Below are positions 9,387-62,850 of a DNA stretch of 64,000 nt, piece after piece. The notes beneath the pieces are model-generated. The model saw only the letters and a program-made list of their open reading frames with translations. It was not told the origin of the DNA and did not search any database. The stretch spans positions 72,421 to 136,420 of the forward strand of contig CAVUOT010000009.1 in the NCBI GenBank assembly GCA_963743185.1, read 5' to 3'. The position numbers and the translations under genes were made by a program. The first letter of the stretch is position 1. Each line of letters begins with the position of its first letter. This DNA is from an uncultured Chloroflexia bacterium. Its GTDB lineage: Bacteria; Chloroflexota; Dehalococcoidia; DSTF01; JACRBR01.

Positions 9387-9451
9387 CCTACGATCGTAGC
9401 GAACGCCCGCGCCCACCGCTACGCGCGCCCCGGCGAGTAGTGTGCAAGCCC

Positions 9452-17434: not shown

Positions 17435-17496
17435 AAGAACCTGGAACCGTGTGCGCTTGACCGCAGGTTCTAGGTTCTTCGTTCTCGGTTCTTCGT
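17435..17496. repeat. inverted GGTTC-type repeat (AAGAACCtgGAACC ... GGTTCtaGGTTCTT) plus extra GTTCT copies; probable bidirectional terminator
   Basis: 14-bp imperfect inverted repeat (17435-17448 / 17466-17479) between two convergent genes. It shares the AGGTTCY unit with the array at 52746-52792. Confidence 0.5.
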
Positions 17497-17501
17497 GCCC
17501 C

Positions 17502-18302
17502 TCACTGCATGAGACGGAAGAAGAAGCTCTCGTTCTGGTAGGCGACGAGCTTGTGGTCGGGCGTGGTGGCGAACCAGGCGCGCTGCGTCATCTGGTCCGC
17601 GCTGAGGTCGACGATCCATGCCTCGATGTCGCCGGCCGGCGTCTTCACCGTCGCCTTGTCGCCGACGGTGAGCGTGACCGTCTGCGTGTCGCGGCGGTTC
17701 GAGAAGACCGTCGTGTACGTCACGGTGTAGCCCTTCTCGAACTTGAGCGTGCGCCAGATGAACAACGACGAGTCGTTGTCGTAGGCGTGCTCGGGCACGC
17801 AGAGCGGGTTGCTGCGCGTGCTGTCGGGCTCCGAGGCGTCCGGCGGCTTGTACGTGCGCTGCTCGATCCTGACGATACGCTTCGACGAGCAGTCTTTGTC
17901 GACGTCCTCGTAAGTGGCGTCCGCCACGCGCTTCTGATCCTTGTCGGTGACGCTGTGCACGTTGCTGAGGGGCTTCAGCGTCGCCGCGTCGACCTTCGAC
18001 ACCGACTCGTCGACATTGCCGGCGTCATCGGCGGTGTGCTGGGTCAGCACGAAGGCATCGCCATCTCTCGCGATCGAGAGCGTGGTCGTCGCCTTGGGCT
18101 TGTTGTTCTCCTTCAGCTCGTAGGTGTGCGTCTCCGGCGCCGTCCAGGGGATCTGAGTGACGATGTCCGTGCGCTTCGGGCCGCTTGTGGTCGATGCGCA
18201 TGCGGCGGCCGCGGCCGGCAACAGACAACAGACGACAGCCAACAGGACGAACGCCGGTCGCCTCTGCTGTCTGCTCTCTGCTCTCTGTTCTCGCACCTTC
18301 AT
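17502..18302 (-). CDS. putative lipoprotein (signal peptide with lipobox-like AAAAC)
   Basis: MKVREQRAESRQQRRPAFVLLAVVCCLLPAAAAACAST..., 266 aa. The ATG overlaps the threonine aldolase stop (ATGA). Confidence 0.6.
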   Translation of the reverse strand: MKVREQRAESRQQRRPAFVLLAVVCCLLPAAAAACASTTSGPKRTDIVTQIPWTAPETHTYELKENNKPKATTTLSIARDGDAFVLTQHTADDAGNVDESVSKVDAATLKPLSNVHSVTDKDQKRVADATYEDVDKDCSSKRIVRIEQRTYKPPDASEPDSTRSNPLCVPEHAYDNDSSLFIWRTLKFEKGYTVTYTTVFSNRRDTQTVTLTVGDKATVKTPAGDIEAWIVDLSADQMTQRAWFATTPDHKLVAYQNESFFFRLMQ

Positions 18303-25132: not shown

Positions 25133-26000
25133 TTACCCGCGAGCTGCCTCACGGAACCGCCCGATAGCGTCGATGTGGTCGCGCGGCGACGCGAGGCCGG
25201 CGTTCATCGTGTTGAACGAAACATGCGTCGCGCCGAGGTCGCGCCAGCCCTGCAGCGTCGCGTCCCACGCGTCCGCGGGCGTGTTGGACATGCTGATACG
25301 CCCCTCGATGCCGACATCGCCGGCGCTGCGTCCGGCGTCGCGGATGTAGCCGCGCAGCAGCTCGACGGTTTCGGCCGCGCGTGGACCCGGTTGGAACTGC
25401 GGGAACCAGCCGTCGGCGATCCTTGCGATGCGCCGCAGCACGGCATCGGCGCCTCCGCCCATCCATACCGGGATCGGGCGCTGCACCGGCAGCGGACAGA
25501 TGCCTGCCTGGCTGCACGTTGTCGTAGCGGCCGTCGAAGTCCACCAGCTCCTCCGTCCACAGCCGCCGCATCAGCGCGATCTGCTCTTCGACGCGCCGGC
25601 CGCGGTTGTGGAAGTTCTCGCCCAGCGCCTCGTACTCGACGTGGTTCCAGCCGATGCCGACACCGAGCCGCATCCGGCCGCCCGAGAGCACATCGACCGC
25701 GGCGGCCTGCTTGGCGACGAGCGCGGTCTGCCGCTGCGGCAGGATGACGATGCCCGTCGTCAGCTCGAGCTTCGTGGTCACCGCCGCCAGGTAGCCGAAC
25801 AGCACGAAGGGCTCGTGGAACGGCGTCCGGTAATCGTACGGCGGTCGGAACTTCTCGAACCGGTCGGGATGCGCGCCGAGCACATGGTCGAAGACGAGCA
25901 CGTGGTCATAGCCGAGCTGCTCTGCCGCCTGCGCGTAGTCGCGGATGACGATCGGATCGTTCCCGATCTCCGACTGCGGGAACACAACGCCAAGTTTCAC
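25133..26000 (-). CDS. LLM-class F420-dependent oxidoreductase (luciferase-like), apparent frameshift near 25490
   Basis: The N-terminus (MKLGVVFPQSEIGNDPIVIRDYAQAAEQLGYDHVLVFDHVLG...MRLGVGIGWN) and the C-terminus (QRPIPVWMGGGADAVLRRIARIADGWFP..., ORF 25133..25486) are in different frames. Confidence 0.75.
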
Positions 26001-27214: not shown

Positions 27215-28714
27215 TCACGCATCGCCGGCAGGTTGCTCCGCCATGTCGGCTTCGGCCTCCGCGATCATCGCATCGATGCGAACGCGCGCCGCCCGCAGCG
27301 CTTCCTTCACGCGCACCGGCGCCGTACCGCCGGGAACGTCGCGCGCGCTGACCGATGACATGGCGTCGATCTTGAGTGCGTCCGCGGCGAAGAGCGGCGA
27401 GAACTTGCGCAGCTCCGCGAGCGACAGCTCGCCGAGGGCGGCGCCCTTCTCCTCCGCGTGGCGGACCAGCTTGCCGACGGCCTCGTGCGCCTGGCGGAAC
27501 GGCAGGCCTTTGCGGACGAGATAGTCGGCGAAATCGGTGGCGAGCGAGTAGTTCTCGACGGCGGCGGCGGCCGTGCGCTCGCCGTTCACCGTGATCAGCG
27601 GGAGCATCTTGGCGATCACTTCCAGCGTGGGGAGCAGCGTCGCCTCGGCGTCGAGCAGCGCCGGCTTGTCCTCCTGCATGTCGCGGTTGTAGGCGAGCGG
27701 CAGACCCTTGAGCGTGACGAGCATGCTGACGAGCGCGCCGATGGCGCGGCCGGTGCGGCCGCGCGCCAGCTCGGCCACGTCCGGGTTCTTCTTCTGCGGC
27801 ATGATGCTCGAGCCGGTGGCGAACGCGTCGGGCAGCGTGATGAAGCCGAACTCGGCGCTCGACCAGAGCACCAGCTCCTCGGCCAGACGCGAGACGTGGA
27901 CCATCGTCAGCGCGGCGGCGCTCAGGAAGTCGACGACGAAGTCGCGGTCGGAGACGGCGTCGATGCTGTTGACGGTGACGCCACGAAAACCCAGCTCTTC
28001 GGCGACCGACTGCCGGTCGATGGGGTACGGCACGCCGGCGAGGGCGCCGCTGCCGAGCGGCGATTCGTCCATCATCGCCATGGCGTTGAGGAAGCGGCGC
28101 AGGTCGCGCTCGAACATCTCGACGTAGGCGAGCATGTGGTGCGCGAAGAGGACCGGCTGCGCGCGCTGGAGGTGCGTGTAGCCGGGCATGATGACGTCGA
28201 CGTTCCGCTCGGCGAGGTCGACGAGCGACGACTGCAGCGCGACGAGATGCACGGCGGCGCGTCGCGTCGATTCGAGCACGTACAGGCGGAAGTCGGTCGC
28301 GACCTGGTCGTTGCGCGAGCGGGCGGTGTGGAGCTTGCCGGCGACAGGGCCGATCTTCTCGGCGAGGCGCGTCTCGACGTTCATGTGGACGTCTTCGAAC
28401 TCCGGCCGCAACACGAACTCGCCGCGCTGGTACTCCTCGAAGATCTGGTTGAGGCCGCTCTCGATCTTCTTCGCTTCGGCGCCGGTGATGATGCTCTGCC
28501 GCGCGAGCATGCGCACGTGGGCGATCGACGCCTCGATGTCCTCGGCGAGGAACATCACGTCGGTGTGCACGGACGACGTGTAGGCTTCGACGAGCTTGTC
28601 GGTCGCCTCGTCGAACCGCCCCGACCACGGCTTCGGCGCGGACGCGGCGGCGGCATCTGCGGCGCCGTCGCCGGCTCTTGCGAGCACCGGCGTCGCTCCG
28701 CGGCGGACGTACAC
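27215..28714 (-). CDS. argH: argininosuccinate lyase (true start probably 40-50 codons downstream of the ORF-track start)
   Basis: KPWSGRFDEATD...TARSRNDQVATD...GYTHLQRAQP...SIMPQKKNP shows the fumarate-lyase signature. Confidence 0.9.
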   Translation of the reverse strand: MYVRRGATPVLARAGDGAADAAAASAPKPWSGRFDEATDKLVEAYTSSVHTDVMFLAEDIEASIAHVRMLARQSIITGAEAKKIESGLNQIFEEYQRGEFVLRPEFEDVHMNVETRLAEKIGPVAGKLHTARSRNDQVATDFRLYVLESTRRAAVHLVALQSSLVDLAERNVDVIMPGYTHLQRAQPVLFAHHMLAYVEMFERDLRRFLNAMAMMDESPLGSGALAGVPYPIDRQSVAEELGFRGVTVNSIDAVSDRDFVVDFLSAAALTMVHVSRLAEELVLWSSAEFGFITLPDAFATGSSIMPQKKNPDVAELARGRTGRAIGALVSMLVTLKGLPLAYNRDMQEDKPALLDAEATLLPTLEVIAKMLPLITVNGERTAAAAVENYSLATDFADYLVRKGLPFRQAHEAVGKLVRHAEEKGAALGELSLAELRKFSPLFAADALKIDAMSSVSARDVPGGTAPVRVKEALRAARVRIDAMIAEAEADMAEQPAGDA

Positions 28715-42710: not shown

Positions 42711-43994
42711 CTAGGTTCGAAAATCTCGCTGCGTCAAGGCGTGCGGCTCGCGGCAGGCGTCGTGCCCGCGGCAGGCGTCGTGCCCGCGGCAGGCGTCGTG
42801 CCGGCAGCAGGCGTCGTGCCGGCAGCTGGCGTCGTGTCCGCGGCCGGCGTCGTGCCCGCGGCCGGGCGCTGCGGGTGCGGCGCCGGCGGCTACCGTCGTC
42901 AGGACGCCCTCCATCGTCGTCGGGTGTACGTCGCAGCGGTAGTAGTAGTCGCCGGCGTCGAGCGGCCCGAACTTCAGCGTCTGCGTCACCGGTCCCGACT
43001 CGAAGGCGGTCTGCGCGACGTCGGCGCCGGTCGCATCCTTGCCCTTGAACACGTGGATGTTGTGCGGGATGCCCGCGTCCTTGTTGTCGAACGTGATCGT
43101 CAGCTCCTGGCCCGCCACTCCGAGCAGCGTCGCCGTGTCGAAGGCAAGACCCTGCGCGGTGAGCTTGAGGTCAGTCGATGCCGCCACCGGACCGGACGGC
43201 GCCGCGGCGGCGGACGGCAGGTTCTGGCCGCAGGCCGGCTGCGTTACGGGCGGCGGGTCCGGCGGGACCGGCGGCACCCATACGGCGGCGCCTTGCTGGT
43301 GCTCGGCGGCTTTCGTCGTGCCCAGGTTGCGCTCCACGGTGACGCTCTGCAGGTTCTTCTCCGGGCTGGCCGTGACCAGCATCAGCTCGCCGTCGATTTC
43401 GATGCGCGAACCCTTGCCGAGCGAACCGAGAGTCGACAGGTAGACCGTCGTAGCCGATGCGTCCAGCGGCCGCGCAAGCTTGAGCCCGGCGCTGGCGTAG
43501 CCGGCGTAGTGGTGCTTCTCGTCGCCGTAGATGGCGTATTCCTTCGCCGTGTCCCAGGCCGTACCCTCCGTAATCATCGTGGCGAGCTGCCGGATCTGCT
43601 CGTCGTTGAGCGTCCCGCCCTGCGTCTGTCCCCACGTCGGCATCGACTTGCCAATGCGGCCGCACGTGATCGTGTTGACGATGAGCTTGAACTTCAACAA
43701 CTTGTCCTGCTCGTTGACCTTTCCCGTCTGCGGGTCTATGCCCTGAAGGTCGGGCCGGTTGAGCGGCAGTGCCAGCTTCAGGCGGTTCGCGACGGCGCCG
43801 CCCTCACCACTGTCGCCGTGGCACGTCGCGCAGTTCTGCGAGAACAGGAACGCGCCGCGGTCGGTGGTCTTGAGCAGATCGCTGGCCTTCGCGTCGGAGG
43901 CACGGCTCGGATCCCACATCGTGTACGCGCCGGTCGCCAGGACGGCGATGAAGACGAGCGCCACCATGAGGTTGATCTGCTTTGCGGTGTTCAT
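42711..43994 (-). CDS. membrane-anchored monoheme cytochrome c fused to a cupredoxin (plastocyanin/auracyanin-like) domain, with C-terminal tandem 6-codon repeats
   Basis: N-terminal TM helix (LMVALVFIAVLATGAY); heme motif CATCH with a distal Met (GKSMPTW). Type-1 copper ligands are present (GIPHNIHVF...YYYRCDVHPTTMEG). The tail is a run of 18-nt repeats. Confidence 0.75.
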   Translation of the reverse strand: MNTAKQINLMVALVFIAVLATGAYTMWDPSRASDAKASDLLKTTDRGAFLFSQNCATCHGDSGEGGAVANRLKLALPLNRPDLQGIDPQTGKVNEQDKLLKFKLIVNTITCGRIGKSMPTWGQTQGGTLNDEQIRQLATMITEGTAWDTAKEYAIYGDEKHHYAGYASAGLKLARPLDASATTVYLSTLGSLGKGSRIEIDGELMLVTASPEKNLQSVTVERNLGTTKAAEHQQGAAVWVPPVPPDPPPVTQPACGQNLPSAAAAPSGPVAASTDLKLTAQGLAFDTATLLGVAGQELTITFDNKDAGIPHNIHVFKGKDATGADVAQTAFESGPVTQTLKFGPLDAGDYYYRCDVHPTTMEGVLTTVAAGAAPAAPGRGHDAGRGHDASCRHDACCRHDACRGHDACRGHDACREPHALTQRDFRT

Positions 43995-47826: not shown

Positions 47827-47861
47827 CGGTGCAGCGTGTCCGCGCGAGGACGCGAAGGTCG

Positions 47862-47889
47862 GGTAGGGGCGCAGCCTGCTACGCCCGCG
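47862..47889. repeat. REP-like hairpin GGTAGGGGCGCAGCCTGCTaCGCCCGCG (terminator position after nagB); a second copy lies at 49764-49792 after thiE
   Basis: Near-identical 28-mers. Each contains a 9-bp inverted repeat (GGGCGCAGC/GCTGCGCCC) and sits just 3' of a convergent gene end. Confidence 0.55.
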
Positions 47890-48125
47890 TTCGCACGCGC
47901 GAAGAATCCGCATACGACACCTGCCCGCCTGCCTGTCGAGCGGCGCCTCTAACCCAACCGGTTGGCGTCACGAGCCTGCCGCGCAAATCGAGCCAGTCGC
48001 TCGGCTGAGCCCCTCTCCACGACGTGGAGAGGGGTGGCCGGAGGCCAGGGTGAGGTGCGCGGCCACAGCGCCGATGCTTCTTCGTGGCTCATCCGTTGCG
48101 GACAGGGCGGCGCGCGCGTCCGTTC

Positions 48126-49734: not shown

Positions 49735-49763
49735 TCCACGACAGCCGGCGCCTGGGATTCATC

Positions 49764-49792
49764 TGGTAGGGGCGCAGCCTGCTGCGCCCGCG
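49764..49792. repeat. REP-like hairpin, second copy (see 47862-47889)
   Basis: CTGGTAGGGGCGCAGCCTGCTGCGCCCGCG. Confidence 0.55.
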
Positions 49793-49843
49793 AGCGGCCG
49801 CAGGTCGCCGTCCTCGCCGTCGAGAGCGGTGCGATCGCCAGCC

Positions 49844-50941
49844 TTAGACCGTGTACGTCTTCTCGTCCGGTCCCTGCAGCAGCAGTGCGACGGGCGACGC
49901 GACACCGGGCTGCCAGAACGGGCCGACGAGGTTGTCGGTCGTGCCGGTGGGGACGATCCGCATGCGCTTGCCGTCGAACGCGAGGAGCTTGCCGCGTTCG
50001 CCGCAGAGCAGCGCGTACTCGCCGGACGGGTGCCAGCCGAGGCCGAGCAGCGTCACGACGTCGCCGGGCGTCGCCGCGCCGGCGCGGACGATGCGCGGGA
50101 TCGAGCGATAGCTGTAGCCCGCTCCGTCGTACGAGACGATCTTGCCGGGGAGCAGCGCGCCGTCCTCACCGTAGCGTGCGGCAAGGATCAGCGCGCGCGG
50201 AGGATCGGCGCCCGGCTGCCAGTCGATGGCGTTCGCATCGTCCTCGTCGTCGGTGGCGAGGATGCCCTGCACGAAGCGGCCGTCGCATCGATACAACGCG
50301 TACGGGCGCGGGTAGCCCGCGTGGCGGCTGGCGTACGCGCCGATCAGCGCGTAGGCGCCGTCGGGTCGCCAGGCGACGGAGCGCATCGTGTGCGCGCGGT
50401 CGCCCGGGAGCTGCTCCAGCGCGCCGGTGACGGCATCGAAGCGCAGCACGCAGCCGCCGTTGCCGACGAGCAGCGCGCACGACCCGTCCGGCGACCACGC
50501 GACGCGGCGGAGATTCTCGCCGGTGGCTGGCGGCAACTCGTCGAACGACGTGCCGTCGTAGAGCAGCACGGCGCCGCGGTTGCCGACGAGCAGCGCGCGC
50601 CCGCCGTCCGGCGACCAGGCGACGCCGCGCAGGTTGTGCGCGCTCTGCGTCTCCAACACATCGAAGCGCGCGGGCGGGTCGAATCGCAGCACCTGCCCGC
50701 GGTTGCCGGCGATGAGCGCGTGCGCGCCGTCCGGCCGCCACGCCGCCCAGCGCAGCGGCCGCGCAACGGGCGCCTCGAGCGCGCGGACAGTCGCGCCGTC
50801 GTAGACGTACGCCGTGGTCACGGGCGGTTGCCCCAGGATGTGGCACAGCCGTCCCCGGCTGTGAGTCGGCCTGCGCCGAGCGCCGCGTTGATGATGTGGA
50901 TACTCACCGGATGACTCGGTGGTCCATTCGTGGTGCGCCAT
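49844..50941 (-). CDS. PD40/WD40-like beta-propeller repeat protein
   Basis: Repeated W(R/S)PDG(A/G/S)xALL(V/I)GN(R/G)G units, at least five copies. The ATG overlaps the stop of the upstream LLM gene. Confidence 0.65.
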   Translation of the reverse strand: MAHHEWTTESSGEYPHHQRGARRRPTHSRGRLCHILGQPPVTTAYVYDGATVRALEAPVARPLRWAAWRPDGAHALIAGNRGQVLRFDPPARFDVLETQSAHNLRGVAWSPDGGRALLVGNRGAVLLYDGTSFDELPPATGENLRRVAWSPDGSCALLVGNGGCVLRFDAVTGALEQLPGDRAHTMRSVAWRPDGAYALIGAYASRHAGYPRPYALYRCDGRFVQGILATDDEDDANAIDWQPGADPPRALILAARYGEDGALLPGKIVSYDGAGYSYRSIPRIVRAGAATPGDVVTLLGLGWHPSGEYALLCGERGKLLAFDGKRMRIVPTGTTDNLVGPFWQPGVASPVALLLQGPDEKTYTV

Positions 50942-51963
50942 CACACATAGAACAGCTCCGCGATCTTCGCGATGTACCGCAGCAGCGCGCCCGGATCGAG
51001 GCCGTACACCGGCGGGCTGAGGGAAGCGGAGTCGGCGCTGCCCCAGATCAGCTCGACGCGCTTCTTCACTTCGTCGGGCGTGCCGCACACGACGAACGTC
51101 TGCGCCATCTCGTCCGTCACCAGATGTTTGACGCTCAGGTAGTCGCCGCGCTTCACGCCTTCCTGCAACTGCTTCGCCTCTTTGCGGAAGCCGTGTGCCG
51201 CGAAGTACTCCTCGTACTGCGCCACGCCGCCGTAGAACGCGACCGTCGCGCGCGCATCCTCGATGGCCTGCTTGCGGTCGTCGTTCGGCGCGACGAAAAG
51301 CCACATGTTGAACTCGATGTCGGAGCGCTGGCGGCCGCCCTTCGCGAGCCCGGCCTTCAGGTCGTCCTGCACCTTCGTCGTCGCCCAGTCGATCGACCAG
51401 ATCGGGTGGCCGATGACGCCGTCGGCGATCTCGGCGCCGAGGCGGATCAGCGGCGTACGCAGCGCGGCGATCCAGATCGGCAGGTCGGTGCGGACGGGCG
51501 CCCCGAGCGGGTTGAACTCGCCGAAGTCGAGCTTGTGGTACTTGCCGTCGTAGCGCTTCAGCTCGCCCGTGTGGCTCTTCGCGATGATCAGGCGGACGAT
51601 CTCGACGACCTCGCGCATGTGCTCGATGGGCTTGCCGTACTCCATGCCGAAGAAGCCCTCGCTCCACGACTTGACGCTGGCGCCGAGTCCGAGCGTGAAG
51701 CGGCCGCTGCTGATGCGATCCATGTCCATCGCCGCCAGCGCCGTCTCGAACGGGCTGCGCGCAAACGCCAGCGCGATGCCCGTCGCGATGCGGACGCGCT
51801 GCGTCGCGGCGGCGGCGACGGCGAGCGGGATGAACGGCGGCCCGTAGACCTGCGGCGCGAAGATGCCTTCGAGGCCCATCGCCTCCATCTGCTGCGCCTG
51901 CGCGGTGATGATCTGCGCCGGCAGCGGCGACACGACGCCCCAGTACTTGCGCTTCTCTGCCAT
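50941..51963 (-). CDS. LLM-class F420-dependent oxidoreductase
   Basis: MAEKRKYWGVVSPLPAQ...RFTLGLGASVKSWSEGFFGMEYGKPIEHMRE, 340 aa. Confidence 0.8.
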   Translation of the reverse strand: MAEKRKYWGVVSPLPAQIITAQAQQMEAMGLEGIFAPQVYGPPFIPLAVAAAATQRVRIATGIALAFARSPFETALAAMDMDRISSGRFTLGLGASVKSWSEGFFGMEYGKPIEHMREVVEIVRLIIAKSHTGELKRYDGKYHKLDFGEFNPLGAPVRTDLPIWIAALRTPLIRLGAEIADGVIGHPIWSIDWATTKVQDDLKAGLAKGGRQRSDIEFNMWLFVAPNDDRKQAIEDARATVAFYGGVAQYEEYFAAHGFRKEAKQLQEGVKRGDYLSVKHLVTDEMAQTFVVCGTPDEVKKRVELIWGSADSASLSPPVYGLDPGALLRYIAKIAELFYV

Positions 51964-52039
51964 GGCGATCAGCTCCTTTCGGGCATGCGGTCGAGGCCGC
52001 TGCCAGCGTAGGCCAGCGAAGGGCGGGCGGCAAACGACT

Positions 52040-52130
52040 CTGTCTTCTCTCCGCTCTCTGCTCATCCGCCTCTGTTCTCTGCTGTCTGCTCTCTGCTCTC
52101 TCTGCTCTCTGCTCTCTGCTCTCTGTTCTC
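52040..52130. repeat. tandem degenerate CTCTGCT/CTGTTCT heptamer tract (purine-rich ACAGAGA on the minus strand) in a divergent promoter region
   Basis: About 12 heptamer-like units. The same family occurs at 724-757, 18262-18295 and 41661-41706. Confidence 0.6.
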
Positions 52131-52215
52131 CCGGGTGATCCGGCGCGCTTGGAGATCGCCGCGCAGCTCGCCTACCCTCGCCACATCGTCACGAGGTTCG
52201 AACAGGAGGTGGATG

Positions 52216-52730
52216 ATGGACGACGCCGGGAAGGTCCCGGACGGAGAGGAGCTGGCGGCACTCCAGGAGCAGCTCGCCGACGCTCGCGCGGAGGTCGAGC
52301 GGCTGCAGCGCGAAGCCGCGAACGCCGTCGCCGAGGCGGCGTACCTGCGCGACGACGCGCGAGCGTCGCACGACGAGGCCGCGACCGCGGTGGCGGAGGC
52401 GGCGACGCTGCGGGAGCAGATCGCCGCGGCGACGGAGCGTGCGCAGGCCGCGGCGGAGCGCTACCGCGATCTCGTCGTGCGGACGGAGCCGGCGCTGCCC
52501 GCCGACCTGATCGCCGGCGGCGACGTCGATGCGATCGACGCCTCGGTGACGGCGGCGCGCGAGATCGTCGGGCGCGTGCGCTCGCACATCGAGACGCAGG
52601 CGCAGGCCGGACGCGTGCCCGCCGGCGCCCCGCCGCGTTCCGCGCCCGACCTCAGCGCGCTGACGCCCGAGCAGAAGATCCGCCACGGCCTCGCGCAGCG
52701 GCAGCTGACGGCACGAACAGGCCGCTGTAG
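52216..52730 (+). CDS. coiled-coil Ala/Glu/Arg-rich protein, phage scaffolding-like (3' end uncertain)
   Basis: GGAGGtggATGATG then MDDAGKVPDGEELAALQEQLADARAEVERLQREAANAVAEAAYLRDDARASHDEAATAVAEAATLREQIAAATERAQAAAERYRDLVV.... No stop in frame before the capsid gene. A stop in an adjacent frame at 52728-52730 precedes a GGGGCACGC/GCGTGCCCT hairpin. Confidence 0.5.
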
Positions 52731-52745
52731 GGGCACGCGGCGGCG

Positions 52746-52792
52746 TGCCCTCGCGGCCTCGGTCCAGGTTCTAGGTTCCAGGTTCCAGGTTC
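52746..52792 (+). repeat. tandem AGGTTCY heptamer array (6-7 units) immediately upstream of the capsid gene ribosome-binding site
   Basis: cCAGGTTCTAGGTTCCAGGTTCCAGGTTCTAGGTTCTAGTTCTT, then caccaaccacAAGGAGaccaacacATG. Confidence 0.7.
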
Positions 52793-52831
52793 TAGGTTCT
52801 AGTTCTTCACCAACCACAAGGAGACCAACAC

Positions 52832-53719
52832 ATGGCAATGACACTTGCGGAAGCCGCGAAGCTCTCGAACGACATCGTACTCCAGGGCGTGATCGAGACG
52901 ATCGTGCTCGATTCGCCGATCCTGCAGGCGCTGCCGTTCATCGAGATCACCGGCAACGGGCTCACGTACAATCGCGAGAACACGAACCCCGCTGCGGCGT
53001 TCTTCAGCGTCGGCGACACGTGGGCGGAAGGCACGCCGACCTTCTCGCAGATCACGGCGACACTCTCGATCGTCGGCGGCGACGCCGACATCGACAACTT
53101 CCTGCTGACGACGCGCAGCAACATGCAGGACCTGCAGGCGGCGGTCATCCGGCTGAAGGCGAAGGCCGTCCAGCAGAAGTTCGAAGACACCTTCGTCAAC
53201 GGCGACACCACCGTCGATGCCAAGTCGTTCGACGGCATCGACAAGCTGACGACGGGCGGGCAGGTCGCGTCGATGGGCGTGAACGGCGCCACCCTGACGC
53301 TCGCGAAGCTCGACGAGGTGATCGACCTGGTGAAGGGCGGGCCGCCGTCGATGCTGCTGATGAGCAAGCGCACGCGCCGATCGCTGAGCAACCTCGCCCG
53401 CACCACGGGCAGCATGCTGCAGATCGACCGCAACGAGTTCGGCCAGATGGTGCAGTTCTACGACGGCGTGCCGGTCGGCGCCTCGGATTACATCTCCGAC
53501 ACGAAGACCGTCGGCACCAGCGCCGACTGCTCGACCGTGTACGCCATGCAGTTCGGCGAGGGCGCGCTGGCGGGCCTGACCGCACCGGGCGCCCTGCAGG
53601 TCGAGACCATCGGCAGCCTGGAGACGAAGGACGCGACGCGGACGCGCGTGAAGTGGTACGTGAGCACGGCGCTGTTCAACACCATCAAGGTGGCGAAGCT
53701 GACAGGCGTACGGCCGTAG
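52832..53719 (+). CDS. HK97-fold major capsid protein-like / encapsulin-like shell protein
   Basis: 295-aa ORF (MAMTLAEAAKLSNDIVLQGVIETIVLDSPILQALPFIEITGNGLTYNRENT...STVYAMQFGEGALAGL...VKWYVSTALFNTIKVA). N- and C-terminal patterns are typical of delta-domain-less HK97-family capsid proteins. AAGGAG ribosome-binding site. Confidence 0.6.
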   Translation: MAMTLAEAAKLSNDIVLQGVIETIVLDSPILQALPFIEITGNGLTYNRENTNPAAAFFSVGDTWAEGTPTFSQITATLSIVGGDADIDNFLLTTRSNMQDLQAAVIRLKAKAVQQKFEDTFVNGDTTVDAKSFDGIDKLTTGGQVASMGVNGATLTLAKLDEVIDLVKGGPPSMLLMSKRTRRSLSNLARTTGSMLQIDRNEFGQMVQFYDGVPVGASDYISDTKTVGTSADCSTVYAMQFGEGALAGLTAPGALQVETIGSLETKDATRTRVKWYVSTALFNTIKVAKLTGVRP

Positions 53720-53727
53720 CCGCTGTG

Positions 53728-53790
53728 GCGCGATACCGTAGCGCGATACCGTAACGCGATACCGTAGCGCGGGCTTTTCAGCCCGCGCGG
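53728..53790 (+). repeat. three tandem 13-nt repeats (GCGCGATACCGTA) plus GCGCGGGC-ttttca-GCCCGCGC hairpin (terminator after the capsid gene)
   Basis: Direct repeats at 53728, 53741 and 53754, then the palindrome at 53767-53790. The same palindrome family recurs at 54799-54825 and 54940-54965. Confidence 0.65.
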
Positions 53791-53914: not shown

Positions 53915-54793
53915 ATGACGACGGACAGTGCGAGACCGGTGCAATCGGTGGTGATCACGGGCGCATCGACGGGGATCGGCGAGGCGTGCGCGCTGCACCT
54001 CGACCAGCTCGGCTGGCGCGTCTTCGCCGGCGTGCGCAAGGACGCGGACGGCGAGGCGCTGCAGCGGAAGGCGTCGGCGCGGCTGATGCCGGTGCGCATC
54101 GACGTCACGGACGCGGCGTCGATCGCGGCCGCACGCGACGTCGTGGCGCGCGAGGTAGGCGAGCGCGGGCTCGACGGGCTCGTGAACAACGCCGGGGTCG
54201 CCGTCGCAGCGCCGCTCGAGTTTCTGCCCCTCGACGACTTGCGCCGCCAGCTCGAGGTCAACGTCGTCGGCCCCGTCGCGATGACCCAGGCCTTCTTGCC
54301 GCTCATACGGACGGCGCGCGGACGCATCGTGAACATCGGCTCCGACAGCGGCAAGCTCTCGACGCCGCTCACCGGCGCGTACTGCGCGTCGAAGTTCGCC
54401 ATCGAAGCGATCACCGACGCGCTCCGCATCGAGCTCGCGCCCTGGGGCATCGAGGTCGTCGTCATCGAGCCGGGCAACATCGCCACGCCGATCTGGAACA
54501 AGTCGACCGCGGACGCCGACCGCATCGAAGCCGCCATGCCGCCCGAGTATCAGAAGCTGTACGGCCCGCAGGCCGCCGCCGTGCGTGCGTTCGTCGCGGA
54601 CTTCGGTACGCGCGGCAGCCAGCCGATCGCAGTCGCGAAGGCGGCCGCCCACGCCTTGCGCGCGAAGCGTCCGCACACGCGCTACCTCGTCGGCTTCGAC
54701 GCTCGCATCACCACGACGATCGCGAAGGTGGTGCCGGACCGCCTCCGCGACGGCCTGATCCGCCGCCAGCTCAAGCTCCCGAAGAAGGCGTGA
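53915..54793 (+). CDS. SDR-family oxidoreductase
   Basis: VVITGASTGIG (TGxxxGxG), NNAG, and the catalytic YCASK. Confidence 0.85.
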   Translation: MTTDSARPVQSVVITGASTGIGEACALHLDQLGWRVFAGVRKDADGEALQRKASARLMPVRIDVTDAASIAAARDVVAREVGERGLDGLVNNAGVAVAAPLEFLPLDDLRRQLEVNVVGPVAMTQAFLPLIRTARGRIVNIGSDSGKLSTPLTGAYCASKFAIEAITDALRIELAPWGIEVVVIEPGNIATPIWNKSTADADRIEAAMPPEYQKLYGPQAAAVRAFVADFGTRGSQPIAVAKAAAHALRAKRPHTRYLVGFDARITTTIAKVVPDRLRDGLIRRQLKLPKKA

Positions 54794-54990: not shown

Positions 54991-56043
54991 CTACGCCTTC
55001 TCCGCCGACACCGCCTTCACAATATCGACGGCCCGCCCCAGCGTTTCGAGGCGCTCTGCGAGCGTGCGGCCGTCGGGGTGAATGCGCAGCGTCGTGACGC
55101 CGGCCTTGCGATAGGCGCGGATGCGGTCGCGGACCATCGCTTCCGTGCCGAGCATGTTCACGGCCAGCACCATCTCGTCAGGCACGAGATCGGCGGCCTC
55201 TCGCCGCTTGCCTTCGAGCCAGAGGCGCTGCACGGCGATGCCCTCCTCCTCGTAACCGGCGCGGCGGAACGCGGCGTTGTAGAAGTTGTGCTCCTTCGAC
55301 CCCATGGCGCCCAGCGTGAAAGCGATGCCGGTACGGTTGCGCGCGACGAGCTTGTCGACGTCGTCCGAGAACGCGACCGTGCCGCCGGCCTGCAGGTCGA
55401 CGTCGGCCAGCGTGCGGCCGGCCTTCTCGGCGCCGGCGCGGATGTGCTTGAAGAAGACCTCCTCCGCCTGCTCCGGGATGAACGACGTGCCGAGCCAGCC
55501 GTTCGCCAGCTCGCCGGTCAGCTCGAGGCTCTTCGGGCTCAGCGTCGCCAGGTAGACGGGGATGTTCCGTTGCGGCTGCGCGCCGGACTTCAGCGCCTTG
55601 CCTTCGCCGCCCGGCAGCGGCAGGTGGTAGATCTCGCCCTCGTACACGAGCCGCTCGCCGCTGGAGACGATGCGGACGATCTCGATCAGCTCGCGGATGC
55701 GCTGGATCGGCTTGCGGAACGGCACGCCGTGCCAGCCCTCGACCACCTGCGGCCCGCTGGCGCCGAGGCCGAGCACGAAGCGGCCGTGCGACATCGACGC
55801 GAGCGTCATCGCCGTCATCGCGAGGTTGGCGGGCGTGCGCGCCACAGCCTGCATGATGCCCGCGCCCAGCTTGATGCGCGACGTCTTCGCGGCGAGGTAC
55901 GCCAGCGGCGTCGCCGCGTCGTGCCCCCACGACTCCGCCGACCACGCGAACTCGACGCCGAGCCGCTCCGCCTCGATGGCAAACGTCGAAAGCTCGTCCC
56001 AGTCCTCGTTGCCGGTCATGCCGAAGCCGATGGCGGTCTTCAT
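54991..56043 (-). CDS. LLM-class F420-dependent oxidoreductase
   Basis: 350-aa ORF with the luciferase-like TIM barrel (RFVLGLGASGPQVVEGWHGVPFRKPIQRIRE). Confidence 0.8.
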   Translation of the reverse strand: MKTAIGFGMTGNEDWDELSTFAIEAERLGVEFAWSAESWGHDAATPLAYLAAKTSRIKLGAGIMQAVARTPANLAMTAMTLASMSHGRFVLGLGASGPQVVEGWHGVPFRKPIQRIRELIEIVRIVSSGERLVYEGEIYHLPLPGGEGKALKSGAQPQRNIPVYLATLSPKSLELTGELANGWLGTSFIPEQAEEVFFKHIRAGAEKAGRTLADVDLQAGGTVAFSDDVDKLVARNRTGIAFTLGAMGSKEHNFYNAAFRRAGYEEEGIAVQRLWLEGKRREAADLVPDEMVLAVNMLGTEAMVRDRIRAYRKAGVTTLRIHPDGRTLAERLETLGRAVDIVKAVSAEKA

Positions 56044-56142: not shown

Positions 56143-56360
56143 GCGATGCACGGAGCGCAGGCGCCCTCGCCTGCCTATCGAGCGCAGCTCGATCAGCGGA
56201 CCGATGCTCGCCCCCAATCAGGCATGCCGGAGCGCAGGCGCCCTCGCCTGCCCATCGAGCGCAGCTCGATCAGCGGACCGATGCTCGCCCGCAACCGGCA
56301 TGGCGGAGCGCAGGCGCCCTCGCCTGCCATCGAGCGCAGCGCGATCAGCGAGCGTCCGCA
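56143..56360. repeat. REP array: three tandem units of about 76 bp, each with the GGAGCGCAGGCGCCCTCGCCTGCC palindrome plus an ATCGAGCGCAGCTCGAT palindrome
   Basis: Units begin near 56153, 56230 and 56306. The array lies immediately 5' of the RAYT gene. Confidence 0.75.
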
Positions 56361-56421
56361 CCTGCGTACGCTTCTGCTACCATCGAACCTCAGGAAGCAT
56401 CTTCAATCCGGAGTTGCTCGC

Positions 56422-56931
56422 GTGAGCGAACGTCAGCCACCCGCCGCCAAGCCGGCGAAGGCATCGTACAAGCGCCGCCTCCCGCATCTCCAACGTCCTA
56501 GCACGACGATCTTCATCACGTTCGCGACATGGAACAGATGGACGCTGCCCGACCGCGCACGGGAGCTTGTAGTCGAGCACCTCACCCGCGACCATCGCGT
56601 GCGCTATCACCTCCACGCCGCCGTCGTGATGCCGGATCATGTGCACGCACTGCTGACACCGAATCGGGACGCGAACGGCGACACGTTTGGGCTCGCGGAG
56701 ATTGTGCAGTCTGTCAAGAGCACGTCCGCTCACTCCGTCAATCGCGCGCTTGGCCGCACGGGCCGCGTCTGGCAGCCGGAGTACGTGGATCGCCTCCTGC
56801 GCTCGGACGAGAGTGTCCTTCAGAAGGGTGAGTACATCTGCGCCAACCCAGTGCGCGCGGGGCTGGTCGCACGTGACGACGATTGGCCTTGGCTGTGGCG
56901 TGAGTGGATCGAAGGTGACTGCGCGCGATAA
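56422..56931 (+). mobile_element. REP-associated tyrosine transposase (RAYT, IS200/IS605 TnpA-like Y1 HuH enzyme)
   Basis: 169 aa from GTG. HuH motif MPDHVHALL; catalytic Tyr region GRVWQPEYVDRLL. Adjacent to the REP array. Confidence 0.7.
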
Positions 56932-60943: not shown

Positions 60944-61150
60944 GCATCACCGGCCGTTTTCGGCCACCACCACTCTTTGTAGCGCCGCAGCCGGGCAGGG
61001 CGAGCCCTGCCCCTACTCGGCATGGCGCCCCCGCACGCAAGCGCCGCTAAGCCAGAGGACAACGGGCCAACAGGCTGCGCGCCTACATCCGTTCGGATAA
61101 GCTGATCCTCAACGACCCCACTCAATGTGTACACAGAGAGATCCGTGCAT

Positions 61151-62850
61151 ATGCGCATGTCGCGACTGTTCGGGAAGACGCTGCGGAACGCTCCAGCCGA
61201 GGCGGAGACGGCGAATCATCAGCTGATGCTGCGGGCGGGCCTGGTCCAGCAGCTCGCGGCCGGCATCTACAGCTACCTGCCGGTGGGCTGGCGCGTGATG
61301 CGGAAGATCGAGCAGATCATCCGCGAGGAGATGGACCGCGCCGGCGGGCAGGAAGTCGTGATGCCGGCGCTGCAGCCGGCGGAGCTGTGGGAGGCATCGG
61401 GCCGCGCGCAGACGATGGGCGACGTGCTCTTCCACCTGAAGGACCGCCGCGAGCGCGACTACGTGATCGGCCCGACGCACGAAGAGGTCGTCGTCGACCT
61501 GTTCAAGAAGCAGGTGCAGAGCTACCGCGACATGCCGCTGATGGTCTACCAGATCCAGACGAAGGCGCGTGACGAGGCGCGTCCGCGCGGCGGTCTCATG
61601 CGCGTGCGCGAGTTCACGATGAAGGACGCCTACAGCTTCGACGCGGACTGGGACGCGCTCGACGACAGCTACAAAGCGGCGCGCGCGGCGTACACACGCA
61701 TCTTCGATCGCTGCGGCGTGCCGGCGATCCCGGTCCTCGCCGACTCCGGCGCGATCGGCGGCAAGGACAGCGAGGAGTTCATCTTCCTCACCGAGGTCGG
61801 CGAGGACACGATCCTGCTGTGTCCGGCGTGCGGCTACGCGGCAAACGCGGAGAAGGCCGACCACAAGAAGCACGAGGTCGAGTCGGAGGACCTGCTCCCG
61901 CTCGAAGAGGTCGCGACGCCGGGCCAGAAGACGATCGATGACCTGGTGAGCTTCCTGGGCGTGCCGCACTTCCGCACGCTAAAGGCGGTGTTCTACGAGG
62001 CCGGCGGCGCGCCGGTGTTCGTCGCGATCCGCGGCGACCTGGAGGTGAACGAGGCGAAGCTCCGCAACGCGTTGAAGGCGGTCGAGATCAAGCTGCTGGA
62101 CGACGAGGGCGTGCGCAAAGCACGGGCTCGTCGCCGGCTCGGCGTCCCCGGTTGGGTTGAAGGGCATCAAGATCGTCGCTGACGATACGGCGCTCACGTC
62201 GTACAACCTCGTCGCCGGCGCGAACAAGCCGGACATGCACTACAAGAACGTGAACCACGGTCGCGACTGGACGGCCGACATCGTCACCGACATCTCGCTC
62301 GCGACGGCGGGGGCGGCGTGTTCGCGCTGCGGCGGCACGCTGCGAGACCAAGCGCGGCATGGAGATGGGCCACGTCTTCAAGCTTGGCACGGTGTACACC
62401 GAGCGTCTCGCGGCAACGTACACCGACGAGGCGGGCGATTCGAAGCCGGCGGTGATGGGCTGCTACGGCATCGGCGTGGGGCGCGTGTTCGCGGGCGCGA
62501 TCGAGGCGAACCACGACGAGCGGGGCATCATCTGGCCGCCGGAGCTGACGCCGTACGACGTGCATCTCGTCGGCCTGGGTTTCGACAAGCCCGGTGTGCG
62601 CGAGAGCGCCGAGCAGGTGTACCAGCAGCTCGTCGATGCGGGCATCGACGTGCTGTACGACGACCGCGAAGACGGCTCGGCGGGCGTGAAGTTCAACGAC
62701 GCCGATCTGCTGGGCATGCCGGTGCGCGTCACCGTCAGCCCGCGCAGCATCGAGAACGGCGGCGCCGAGCTGAAGCGCCGGACCGTGAAGGAGTCGGCGA
62801 TAGTGGCGCTCGACGGCGTCGCCGGCGCCGTGCGGCAGCTCGCCGGCTAG
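61151..62850 (+). CDS. proS: proline--tRNA ligase, two apparent frameshifts (about 62110 and about 62345)
   Basis: Class II motifs (FRDMPLMVYQIQTKARDEARPRGGLMRVREFTMKDAYSF), editing/insertion domain (IKIVADDTALTSYNLVAGANKPDMHYKNVN), and anticodon-binding C-terminus (ORF 62359..62850: HVFKLGTVYTE...GCYGIGVGRV). Confidence 0.85.

Follow-up and report, generated by a model that had tools for sequence, protein, structure and literature searches.

Why should a phage-type capsid gene, accompanied by a single coiled-coil gene, lie among oxidoreductase genes in the genome of an uncultured Chloroflexia bacterium? An earlier note on this DNA had proposed an encapsulin-like compartment, a domesticated capsid or a GTA-like module, and had argued that the pair is not a prophage remnant alone. 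We have analysed the pair in a stretch of 64,000 nucleotides (hereafter the window) and in related loci, including those of the window's own clade (group A; about 50 loci with a capsid identity of 80% or more). In our view, the pair is most consistently interpreted as the shell-forming part of an old, domesticated GTA-like element in Dehalococcoidia-class Chloroflexota, a reading to which we assign a probability of roughly 0.6. Among the alternatives offered previously, a domesticated capsid or GTA-like module is the best fit, and the conservation and synteny data agree that a prophage remnant alone does not describe the locus. The features discussed are collected in Table 1.

Table 1. Features of the scaffold-capsid pair and its surroundings, with positions numbered from the first nucleotide of the window.
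Feature	Position	Strand	Basis or remark
Third LLM gene, frameshifted	25149-26000		26 kb away
Beta-propeller gene	49847-50821	-	Gene call
LLM gene	50941-51964	-	Divergent from the coiled-coil gene
CT-rich heptamer tract, TCTGCTC, ~12 copies	52043-52130	.	LLM/coiled-coil divergent intergenic region; Tandem Repeats Finder score 100
Promoter-like motif: TTGGAG (52149-52154), 18-nt spacer, TACCCT (52173-52178)	52149-52178	+	
Scaffold-position coiled-coil gene, ~164 aa if ended by TGA 52706-52708	52213-52708	+	Composition; profile of the coiled-coil family
GC-rich hairpin, 9-bp stem, 4-nt loop	52730-52751	+	Predicted fold; between coiled-coil and capsid genes
AGGTTCY heptamer array, 6 copies	52766-52806	+	Just before capsid ribosome-binding site
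Major capsid protein, 295 aa, HK97 fold, epsilon15-gp7/SU10 type, no delta domain	52832-53719	+	Family models
GCGCGATACCGTA 13-mer, 3.4 tandem copies	53728-53771	.	Directly after capsid stop codon; unique in window
Perfect palindrome GCGCGGGCTTTTCAGCCCGCGC	53767-53788	.	
SDR gene	53915-54793		
F420-class LLM gene	54991-56043		TIGR03559

The capsid gene has a GC3 of 0.94 and is preceded by the ribosome-binding site AAGGAG at 52818-52823. Its product matches the NCBIfam model NF045672 (MCP_gp7_epsi_15) at 204 bits against a cutoff of 75, TIGR01554 at 33.7 bits (cutoff 27.5), the Pfam family PF05065 at 39.2 bits (cutoff 24.2) and PHROG 212 with an E value of 7.7e-72, and it also falls within the Pfam family GP7/SU10_MCP. 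The structure predicted from a diverse alignment contains the N-arm, E-loop, P-domain spine helix and A-domain of the HK97 fold; a version calculated from close homologues only (pLDDT 41) was discarded. The gene encodes a real HK97-fold major capsid protein of the epsilon15-gp7/SU10 type without a delta domain, and the original assignment to the HK97 fold is upheld. Comparison with solved folds, which the earlier note had recommended, placed family 2 encapsulins rather than phage or GTA capsids at the top of the structural matches, with cf-PICI and P4 capsids also in the list. By sequence the protein is nearer to phage capsids than to encapsulins, because the profile scores are better for the former (8cjz, 4e-20; epsilon15 gp7, 2e-14) than for family 2 encapsulins (1e-10 to 2e-5). 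There was no encapsulin model among its NCBIfam (E up to 1) or Pfam matches, and the closest relative in the phage database shares 39% identity with it. An exact copy of the protein is not on record.

The Ala/Glu-rich coiled-coil gene directly upstream starts at 52213 or 52216, has a GC3 of 0.92 and is preceded by AGGAGG at 52204-52209; both genes of the pair thus have the strong ribosome-binding sites that had been claimed. Its protein has a conserved C-terminal peptide, RVPAGAPPRSAPDLSALTPEQKIRHGL. In 80 of 157 loci the ORF directly preceding the capsid gene is matched by a profile of the family, and the partnership extends to viral contigs in which the capsid is only 36% identical, while named scaffold families match weakly (phrog_2932, E = 0.063). 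Upstream position, a coiled coil, co-inheritance with the capsid family and a conserved C-terminal end are the properties of a scaffolding protein, and they are consistent with the scaffold-like partner described initially. As judged from these properties, the coiled-coil protein is the cognate scaffold-position partner of the capsid protein, with a predicted role as scaffold.

A length of 170-190 residues had been given for this protein. The start and the composition stand, but an end near 52730 does not: the ORF has no in-frame stop and remains open to 53754 (539 codons), overrunning the capsid gene. In 28 of 28 other group A loci the coiled-coil gene stops four to seven codons past KIRxGL. 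The corresponding stop in the window, TGA at 52706-52708, is shifted by one base from the coiled-coil frame, and the ORF therefore formally extends to 53754; the TAG at 52728 lies in a different frame. The missing stop is most likely a one-base assembly error. Further frameshifts are present in the window (two in ProRS and one in the LLM gene at 25.5 kb), and the scaffold defect is probably technical because an essential gene, ProRS, is affected too. Other clade members also carry damaged copies, with an in-frame stop in L161 (a short-read contig) and frameshifts in L008, so that the scaffold may be less essential than the capsid gene. We also asked whether the heptamer array, by frame switching or phase variation, might fuse the scaffold to the capsid. 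This was rejected because the capsid frame contains TAG codons at 52772 and 52793, because relatives have normal stops and different repeats, and because the window contains other frameshifts.

The pair is isolated from other phage genes. Pfam searches of the ORFs at 38-64 kb found no terminase, portal, protease, tail or integrase gene, and profiles of 11 gene families from the cluster described below had no match in six-frame ORFs of all 64 kb, which confirms the absence reported before. A terminase match at 28264-28446 was spurious, lying inside argininosuccinate lyase. Comparison of packaging loci with the window by tblastx gave no link. No att-like direct repeats flank the pair and the sole tRNA is 30 kb away; a generic promoter/terminator scan found nothing. 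The described flanking genes are present as two LLM genes, an SDR gene and a beta-propeller gene, but the third LLM gene is distant and frameshifted. A REP-associated tyrosine transposase gene lies at 56146-56931. Neighbours across the window and group A loci include LLM, SDR, ThiE, EamA, beta-propeller and other genes, and RAYT/IS elements are found nearby, with HTH or toxin-like genes in some relatives. Redox-enzyme cargo, suggested earlier on the basis of these neighbours, is not borne out, as the upstream LLM gene is divergently transcribed and the SDR gene adjoins the pair only in the window and L006. Co-occurrence of the pair with these genes accordingly holds for the minus-strand LLM gene, kept in most group A loci, but not for the SDR gene. 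Nor did a search for targeting peptides reveal cargo: no second ORF bearing the conserved C-terminal peptide of the scaffold turned up in the window or among the other group A loci that were searched.

The repeats around the pair are real and nonrandom, as stated in the earlier note, although the AGGTTCY array occupies 52766-52806 rather than 52746-52792. They do not, however, bracket the pair specifically, because the heptamers recur elsewhere in the window (TCTGCTC-type at 18262-18292 and AGGTTCY at 17436-17496) and because relatives differ at the same position: L016 shares the AGGTTCY heptamer, whereas L005 has AATCACC in three copies and L010 has GTTGGAT in four to five. The CT-rich tract sits between the start of the LLM gene (51964, minus strand) and the coiled-coil gene. 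A hairpin is present between the coiled-coil and capsid genes, as claimed, but the fold energies of the hairpin regions are ordinary for their composition (z of -0.9 and -0.5, the value for 52730-52751 being -0.9), and relatives have unrelated hairpins at this position. The core of GCGCGGGCTTTTCAGCCCGCGC also follows the capsid gene in L006, and a variant lies upstream of the coiled-coil gene in L002; the palindrome is likely to be a transcript-end hairpin or a REP-like element.

The capsid gene was found in at least 210 species-level Chloroflexota genomes, nearly always with a length of 294-295 residues. The best 80 of the 210 matching genomes are nearly all Chloroflexota, with one contig labelled Hyphomicrobiales that is possibly mis-binned. 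The protein is intact at 294-296 residues in more than 120 close variants and in the 80 loci retrieved from the 210 genomes. Relatives that are at least 80% identical carry the pair at the same chromosomal site, with the order minus-strand LLM gene, coiled-coil gene, capsid gene in the great majority of some 50 group A loci, and site and flanks are the same in species that differ by 10-30% in their housekeeping genes. Compared locus by locus, the capsid has diverged less than aconitase, ThiE and the LLM genes; at five loci its identity to the window is 91, 85, 84, 82 and 81%, compared with 88, 80, 81, 72 and 74% for aconitase. The dN/dS values are 0.10-0.31. The window's clade forms a monophyletic group in the capsid tree, placed within the lineages that bear the cluster and not set off by a long stem branch, and the capsid protein shows neither acceleration nor a change in length at the transition from the cluster-linked state. 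No group A sequence was present in IMG/VR or the phage database, and IMG/VR flags some related clusters as viral (best 72%). From these sequence comparisons, the pair has evolved under strong purifying selection and by vertical inheritance in Chloroflexota. A lone pair that is inherited vertically and held more tightly than aconitase therefore looks like a working piece of a domesticated particle and not like a dead prophage.

In relatives at 69-78% identity the pair lies within a cluster of about 13 kb. The gene order is small ORFs, large terminase, Cys-rich HTH protein, portal, scaffold and capsid, followed by genes for a 130-residue protein, an SU10-type adaptor, a 660-residue protein and a 70-residue protein. 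The portal matches PF05133 (5.7e-22), the adaptor matches PF24175 and the terminase has a nuclease domain; throughout the terminase family the Walker A, Walker B and nuclease motifs are invariant. Searches of PDB sequences with the 660-residue protein and the terminase gave marginal matches only. Integrase and replication Pfam families are absent from the cluster, its host flanks are conserved and host genes often interrupt it. Every locus at or below 78% identity that reaches far enough carries further cluster genes; no locus at or above 80% does. In about 0.67 Mb of flanks from the roughly 50 loci of the window's clade no cluster gene was found, the sole exception being a C12-like HTH ORF in L173. 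The locus L031 has kept half a portal gene. The wider genomic view that had been proposed as a possible refutation does reveal a terminase-portal cluster in relatives, but this is not an ordinary prophage because it is chromosomally fixed, lacks an integrase and is vertically inherited. The cluster genes are missing from the 10 kb around the pair in the window's clade and, in the window, from the 52 kb that precede it.

The packaging genes also occur without the shell genes. Unlinked packaging modules are present in five independent contigs (L087, L158, L160, L165 and L166), and the orphan terminase-HTH-portal module of the L087 type (WHTK01, DASZOH01) adjoins a polyprenyl synthase gene. The portals of the orphan modules are equidistant from all cluster-linked portals, as is the window capsid from the cluster-linked capsids. 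Portal homologue searches, matching of samples and accessions and a metagenome scan did not link an orphan packaging module and a group A capsid in one genome.

The separation of the shell genes from the cluster coincides with a change in their upstream sequences. In Firmicutes and Actinobacteria LexA binds the site GAACN4GTTC, of which Chloroflexi have variants (PMC4951493). Of 56 more distant loci, 14 have an exact copy in the 900 nt that precede the capsid gene, and of 26 group A loci none has; by chance 0.0135 per locus would be expected. Most of the 56 distant loci have AGAAC-N4-GTTCT with at most one mismatch. This LexA-box-like sequence precedes both the packaging operon and the scaffold-capsid operon, overlapping the -10 element, and LexA control of the cluster operons is predicted for these loci. 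No such box lies upstream of the window's pair. Instead, 20 of 26 group A loci, compared with two of 56 more distant ones, have a motif of the form TTGGAG-N16-19-TAnnnT ahead of the capsid gene; in the window it is found about 35 nt before the scaffold start. It resembles a promoter and may act as one, and it is conserved in group A together with the ribosome-binding sites. The orphan packaging modules have kept the LexA-like box, and simple co-regulation with the group A shell module, which lacks it, is therefore not indicated.

We propose that the pair represents the head-shell module, an internal scaffold and a major capsid protein, of an ancient phage-derived set of particle genes. The ancestral state would have been the cluster of about 13 kb, DNA-damage-inducible and GTA-like, with neither an integrase nor replication genes. 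The shell genes of the window's clade now stand apart from all the others; they have lost the LexA-like box, have their own promoter-like motif (TTGGAG-N17/18-TAnnnT) and remain under strong purifying selection. The coiled-coil protein may nucleate shell assembly through its conserved C-terminal 25 or so residues, and the 295-residue protein would build an icosahedral shell. By elimination, our guess is that genomes of the clade also carry an orphan terminase-HTH-portal module and that DNA would still enter the shell in trans, in the manner of multi-locus gene transfer agents. Some observations weigh against this GTA-like interpretation: other cluster genes are missing from the 64 kb window and, apart from the L173 HTH ORF, from the clade flanks; orphan module and group A capsid were found in no common genome; the LexA-like box is confined to the former; the scaffold is interrupted in L161, L008 and the window; and the nearest solved folds are family 2 encapsulins.

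There is a different account of the same pair, in which the packaging, neck and tail genes have been lost and scaffold and capsid have been kept for a cellular function as a stand-alone, DNA-free shell. The coiled-coil protein would then occupy or organize the interior, docked by its C-terminal peptide, with SOS control gone. We consider this conceivable but rather unlikely. Retention of the pair alone at a fixed site in about 50 loci would be explained, as would the strong purifying selection, the loss of the box and gain of the promoter-like motif exactly at the base of the window's clade, and the presence in the partner of a conserved C-terminal peptide comparable to a targeting peptide. 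Enzyme cargo is, however, not evident, the peptide being found only in the coiled-coil protein and the neighbours varying except for the divergent LLM gene. The capsid passed through the transition without acceleration or change in length, its profiles are nearer to phage capsids with no encapsulin model among the NCBIfam and Pfam matches, and the orphan packaging modules possibly belong to the same genomes. It is similarly doubtful that the clade has been caught mid-change, with an SOS-inducible GTA-like element cut down to scaffold and capsid under their own promoter and forming a DNA-free shell.

The remaining explanations are far less probable. Two genes could have survived by chance as an inert remnant after the rest of an old prophage was deleted, as their separation from other phage genes, the damaged scaffold ORFs (window, L008 and L161) and the half portal gene of L031 might suggest. 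This is highly improbable, and the observed conservation already contradicts it: more than 120 close variants and the 80 retrieved loci keep the capsid gene intact, and the gene is held more tightly than aconitase, ThiE and LLM genes with a dN/dS of 0.1-0.3 and has a conserved upstream motif and ribosome-binding sites, while the window frameshifts that also hit ProRS make its scaffold defect probably technical. That the pair might be the head module of a mobile element inserting at this site (a satellite, a capsid-forming PICI or an active temperate phage) seems to us the least credible account. Genuine phages have capsids of this family (identity up to 39%), some related clusters are flagged as viral and cf-PICI and P4 capsids appear among the fold matches, but we found no integrase or other recombinase, primase, att repeat, nearby tRNA or replication or regulatory module. 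Insertion is not variable, site and flanks being shared by species with 10-30% housekeeping divergence, and group A is absent from both viral databases. Resident capsid and scaffold proteins might, lastly, poison or divert the assembly of infecting phages with the same capsid family. Scaffold-like proteins that redirect capsid size are known from satellites, structural proteins alone have been retained here, and RAYT/IS elements or, in some relatives, HTH and toxin-like genes are nearby. Nevertheless, PADLOC returned coiled-coil noise only, the neighbourhood is no defence island and so extreme a sequence conservation is the reverse of the outcome expected from an arms race; we consider such an anti-phage device very improbable.

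Domesticated phage particles (GTAs, tailocins and encapsulins) are few, and each is informative about the capture of viral machinery. The present case, apparently undescribed, is densely sampled in a phylum rich in uncultured soil and groundwater members, where carriers number at least 210 species-level genomes and metagenomic variants run into the thousands. Living lineages keep all of the intermediates: the contiguous cluster, the cluster split by host genes, the orphan packaging module, the orphan capsid and the rewired scaffold-capsid pair. The dispersal and co-regulation of GTA genes and the origin of encapsulin shells from phage capsids are therefore directly testable. A LexA-controlled particle system, as predicted for Dehalococcoidia, would be relevant to gene flow in these communities, and a DNA-free shell, if true, would be a new encapsulin-like family whose phage-cluster intermediates are extant in sister lineages.

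Comparison with known systems separates the pair from three of the four described encapsulin families. Membership of family 1, 3 or 4, which the earlier note had left open, is not supported. The capsid protein has no match to Linocin_M18 (PF04454), the family 1 model, or to DUF1884 (PF08967), the family 4 model; family 4 members are truncated, A-domain-only proteins, whereas its 295 residues form the complete HK97 fold. Family 3 ('natural product') encapsulins are defined by embedding in a peptide natural-product biosynthetic gene cluster and occur almost exclusively in Actinobacteria and Proteobacteria, with one case in Chloroflexi (Andreas and Giessen 2021, PMC8346489). The pair resembles them in its PF05065 (Phage_capsid) annotation, its chromosomal location and the SDR gene adjacent in the window. 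It differs in that this adjacency is limited to the window and L006, and genes for NRPS/PKS, sulfotransferase or AmCP are absent from the 10 kb around the pair, both in the window and in the Pfam-annotated group A loci L001-L003 and L161-L164; it is set apart from family 3 by description. Family 2 encapsulins (SrpI of Synechococcus, Mmp1/MMP-I and the Streptomyces 2B shells) are the top structural matches and are detectable by profile, and they share with the window's clade a chromosomal capsid-like gene without a nearby portal or terminase. They have an adjacent cargo enzyme and homologous loci free of phage genes, whereas the pair has no adjacent cysteine desulfurase, terpene cyclase, polyprenyl transferase or xylulose kinase, no cNMP-binding insertion, a phage-type scaffold as partner and relatives of 73-78% identity that still lie in terminase-portal clusters.

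The epsilon15 gp7, BPP-1 and SU10 phages share the capsid family, and the order scaffold then capsid is that of Streptomyces phage Rowa. Identity to these phages is at most 39%, and unlike them the window gene has no phage genome or protease around it, is chromosomally fixed and evolves at the rate of housekeeping genes. We found no relevant report of GTAs or domesticated capsids in Chloroflexota or Dehalococcoidia in the literature. Compared with RcGTA of Rhodobacter capsulatus and the multi-locus GTAs, the system differs in its host phylum, its epsilon15/SU10-type capsid and SU10-type adaptor, and in that no siphovirus tail genes were recognised; the clade of the window has only scaffold and capsid side by side and no longer has the LexA-like box. 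Terminase, portal, capsid and adaptor genes occur together in the relatives at or below 78% identity and not in the window or the flanks of the roughly 50 clade loci. LexA has a role in RcGTA production, and a link to the SOS regulator is predicted here from the LexA-box-like sites. As in these GTAs, phage-derived head and packaging genes have been fixed in the chromosome without integrase or replication genes, have become partly dispersed and have been inherited vertically under purifying selection throughout a large clade, and this description holds for the gene family as a whole.

The capsid gene encodes 295 residues in a window of 67.7% G+C, has a ribosome-binding site and shows a GC3 of 0.94, a codon-position pattern typical of genuine genes. 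Three capsid models score its product above their curated cutoffs: Pfam Phage_capsid, NCBIfam MCP_gp7_epsi_15 (204 bits against a cutoff of 75) and NCBIfam major_cap_HK97. PHROG 212 ('major head protein') gives a further match, with an E-value of 8e-72. The structure predicted from a diverse alignment (pLDDT 84.4, pTM 0.77) has Foldseek TM-scores of 0.65-0.72 to family 2 shells and of 0.62-0.65 to HK97 and RcGTA. The sequence profile places phage capsids at 3.9e-20 (8cjz), 1.3e-14 (3j4u) and 2e-14 (epsilon15 gp7, 3j40), and family 2 encapsulins at 1e-10 to 2e-5.

The Ala/Glu-rich ORF 5' of it, with an AGGAGG site and a GC3 of 0.92, has database matches of coiled-coil type only. In 80 of 157 loci, which include viral contigs with capsids only 36-63% identical, the ORF directly 5' of the capsid gene is matched by a profile of this family, and in Streptomyces phage Rowa, which has the same capsid family, an annotated scaffolding protein occupies the corresponding position. 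The C-terminal ends of other scaffolds bind the coat, and by analogy the best-conserved part, the last ~25 residues (RVPAGAPxRxxPDLSALSPxEKIxxGL), is expected to be the coat-binding end. Apart from the scaffold, no ORF in the window or at the searched loci of its clade contains this motif, so no additional 'cargo' is indicated. We infer that the pair forms a shell with the coiled-coil protein as scaffold.

Capsid homologues number in the thousands; the top 120 have identities of 81-96% and lengths of 294-296 residues throughout, their named sources being Chloroflexota/Dehalococcoidia MAGs, with several contigs of 100-385 kb. The gene occurs in at least 210 GTDB species representatives (one genome per species), and of the best 80 almost all belong to Chloroflexota (Dehalococcoidia, Tepidiformales and others), complete chromosomes included; one contig is labelled Hyphomicrobiales and is possibly mis-binned. 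The closest known phages have capsids only 39% identical, and the maximum in IMG/VR is 72%, with no entry belonging to the window's clade. This clade, defined by capsids at least 80% identical and represented by about 50 genomic and metagenomic loci, carries the pair at the same chromosomal site, in the order 6PGL, ThiE, beta-propeller, LLM (minus strand), scaffold and capsid, with a second LLM or aconitase next in most cases. In five syntenic relatives the capsid is 91, 85, 84, 82 and 81% identical to that of the window and aconitase 88, 80, 81, 72 and 74%; across syntenic relatives ThiE ranges over 62-76%, LLM over 73-90% and scaffold over 53-87%. Together with pairwise capsid dN/dS values of 0.10-0.31, in which dS is probably underestimated because of codon bias, these identities rule out an inert remnant. 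The pair is genuine, under selection and passed on by vertical descent.

The end that the earlier note gave for the coiled-coil ORF is wrong: the TAG at 52728 lies in a different frame, and the true frame runs open through the capsid gene. In all 28 other loci of the clade the scaffold ORFs stop 4-7 codons past a conserved ...PEQKIRxGL; in the window GLAQRQ is followed by C-TGA. The simplest explanation is an indel error in the assembly, with a real mutation as the alternative, since the window also holds frameshifts in an LLM gene and in the prolyl-tRNA synthetase (ProRS) gene. The ProRS pieces are 92, 78 and 86% identical to an intact 568-residue orthologue (locus L006), and either the assembly contains indel errors here or an essential gene is broken. 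A scaffold-capsid fusion by programmed frameshifting or heptamer slippage was rejected on account of two TAG codons in the capsid frame. Disrupted scaffold genes beside intact capsid genes were also seen in two relatives (L008 and L161).

Positions of features in the window and in relatives (L numbers denote loci carrying capsid or packaging genes)
Sequence	Position (nt)	Strand	Feature
Window	724-756; 17436-17496; 18219-18292		Tandem heptamers TCTCTGT, AGGTTCT, CAACAGA, CTCTGCT in intergenic/5' regions
Window	17436-17496; 18262-18292		AGGTTCY and CTCTGCT heptamers in unrelated intergenic regions
Window	22780		Sole tRNA
Window	25133-26000		F420-class LLM gene (TIGR03619), frameshifted near 25500; C-terminal part continues in ORF 25133-25486
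Window	42711-43994	-	Cytochrome c/cupredoxin gene
Window	42737-42862		18-nt unit x7 (89% matches), 3' end of that gene
Window	47859-47898; 49762-49801		REP-like palindromic 40-mers
Window	52149-52178		Promoter-like TTGGAG motif
Window	52213/52216		Coiled-coil (scaffold) ORF, start
Window	52706-52708		Expected scaffold TGA, displaced by one base
Window	52728		TAG in a different frame
Window	52772; 52793		TAG codons in the capsid frame
Window	52832-53719	+	Capsid ORF
Window	53754		Limit of the open scaffold frame
Window	56146-56931		REP-associated tyrosine transposase (RAYT) gene (NF047646, 102 bits)
Window	56146-56350		2.7 tandem copies of a 77-nt unit (93% matches), 5' third of RAYT gene
Window	61127-62850		ProRS gene, split over three frames; changes near 62120 and 62348
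L008	about 9400-9990		Scaffold gene, two frameshifts; long-read chromosome
L031	2842-3486		Portal, C-terminal half only (residues 222-436)
L084	7020; 13504		LexA-box-like sites
L085	7066; 13116		LexA-box-like sites
L087	7160		LexA-box-like site
L160	6978		LexA-box-like site
L161	9397-9909		Scaffold gene, in-frame stop (TYL*AAEERL); short-read contig
L165	6875		LexA-box-like site
L166	7195		LexA-box-like site
L173	3679-4338		Cys-rich HTH ORF, 6 kb upstream of the pair

Neighbouring genes were assigned by Pfam and NCBIfam. Upstream lie genes for HtrA, a cytochrome c/cupredoxin protein, cytochrome b, a 6-phosphogluconolactonase-like protein, EamA, ThiE, a beta-propeller and an LLM on the minus strand; downstream are SDR, an F420-class LLM (minus strand), the RAYT, aconitase, an HTH protein and ProRS. 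The repeat in the cytochrome c/cupredoxin gene implies a repetitive hexapeptide tail. Eleven phage-cluster family profiles built from relatives matched none of the six-frame ORFs of the whole 64 kb, no att-like direct repeats were found flanking the pair, and the window has a single tRNA. The isolation claimed for the pair therefore holds for the window, as three checks gave no phage or mobile-element context. The repeats said to bracket it all exist and exceed chance, but they do not form a frame specific to it: the heptamers recur elsewhere in the window and differ at the homologous spot in relatives (AATCACC x3 in L005, GTTGGAT x4-5 in L010; L016 has AGGTTCT like the window), and so look like a genome-wide intergenic habit of these organisms. 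The palindrome 3' of the capsid gene, which L006 has in the corresponding place, probably represents a hairpin of transcript-end or REP-like type; the RAYT gene lies 2.4 kb from it. The hairpin regions fold no better than shuffled sequence.

In relatives with capsids 69-78% identical, scaffold and capsid lie inside a conserved same-strand cluster: two to four small ORFs, a 450-490-residue protein with a terminase nuclease domain, a Cys-rich HTH protein, an SPP1-type portal (PF05133, 5.7e-22), scaffold, capsid, a 130-residue protein, an SU10-type adaptor (PF24175), a 660-residue protein and a 70-residue protein. Across the terminase family the Walker A-like motif RQxGKN, the Walker B motif LLLEVDEAQ and the Asp motifs of the nuclease do not vary. 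These clusters showed no gene for an integrase, a repressor or replication, the host flanks are conserved between samples, and host genes often interrupt the cluster (e.g. L032, L063, L067 and L079). On the complete chromosome OY969814.1 (L031) the portal is truncated (92% identical to that of L032) and no terminase lies within 10 kb; scaffold, capsid, adaptor and the 660-residue gene are intact. One sub-clade (L040, L047, L063, L065, L073, L075, L079, L082 and L083) differs in gene order, the 70-residue protein (family C2) being fused to or replaced by a 320-525-residue protein directly 3' of the capsid gene, followed by an 80-residue protein (C18). In a neighbour-joining tree of capsids the window's clade forms a single group that branches from within the cluster-bearing lineages, on no long stem. 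The division between paired and clustered loci emerged again from an independent scan of metagenomes: loci at 80% identity or more all have scaffold and capsid only, and all those at 78% or less have further cluster genes wherever the sequence reaches far enough, L192 (78%) having the whole contiguous set. A phage-like cluster that is fixed in the chromosome, lacks an integrase and pervades Dehalococcoidia gave rise to the pair, which in the window's clade is physically unlinked from the other cluster genes and has different upstream signals.

The sequence AGAAC-N4-GTTCT followed by TAtnCT occurs in the cluster-bearing relatives and in another clade, whose capsid genes are solitary, directly 5' of the packaging operon, of the scaffold-capsid operon, and of the capsid gene where the scaffold is unlinked. 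Each LexA-box-like site in the table has this form, with TAtnCT as a -10-like element, and lies 5' of a packaging or scaffold-capsid operon. Within 900 nt 5' of the capsid gene, exact GAACN4GTTC was found in 14 of 56 loci of these two sets and in 0 of 26 of the window's clade (chance expectation 0.0135 per locus); TTGGAG-N16-19-TAnnnT was found in 2 of 56 and 20 of 26, respectively. As Firmicutes and Actinobacteria use GAAC-N4-GTTC as their LexA operator (PMC4951493), the ancestral element, which was probably GTA-like, is predicted from sequence to have been SOS-inducible and LexA-controlled; that source also reports operator variants in Chloroflexi, citing a Dehalococcoides ethenogenes study. 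The window's clade appears to have been rewired, the site being absent and a putative promoter of its own present.

In our view the packaging and neck genes of the window's clade lie elsewhere in its genomes, a reading to which we assign a probability of about 0.5. Packaging modules without a capsid (small ORFs, terminase, HTH protein and portal, always adjoining a polyprenyl synthase gene) occur on five independent contigs (L087, L158/L159, L160, L165 and L166; about 7-11.4 kb in each), with no capsid gene in the 4-10 kb available 3' of them; the L160 terminase appears fragmented. This reading is favoured because no shift in the capsid's evolutionary tempo is seen at the transition, because these abundant modules have portals equidistant from all cluster-linked portals, and because the solitary-capsid clade, whose much more divergent terminases are 37-45% identical to those of L032 and L087, matches them poorly. 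The window capsid is likewise equidistant from cluster-linked capsids. That the pair is instead kept as a stand-alone shell without packaging genes would be the more novel of the two readings; we regard it as the less likely. Speculatively, the HTH protein of the packaging operon, which resembles sigma-70 region 4 and a 'late activator', might activate the new promoter. One member of the window's clade (L173) has a Cys-rich HTH ORF like those of the cluster family C12 (YADEGCRYAPSCLTCHLPRCAYD; profile E 3e-8).

Our literature searches found no GTA or domesticated capsid in Chloroflexota or Dehalococcoidia. An encapsulin census lists one Chloroflexi case, of family 3, in a biosynthetic cluster (PMC8346489), whereas the pair in the window is not in such a cluster. 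We class the pair with the domesticated phage particle systems, a known kind; what makes it valuable is its wide distribution and the survival of a series of intermediate states.
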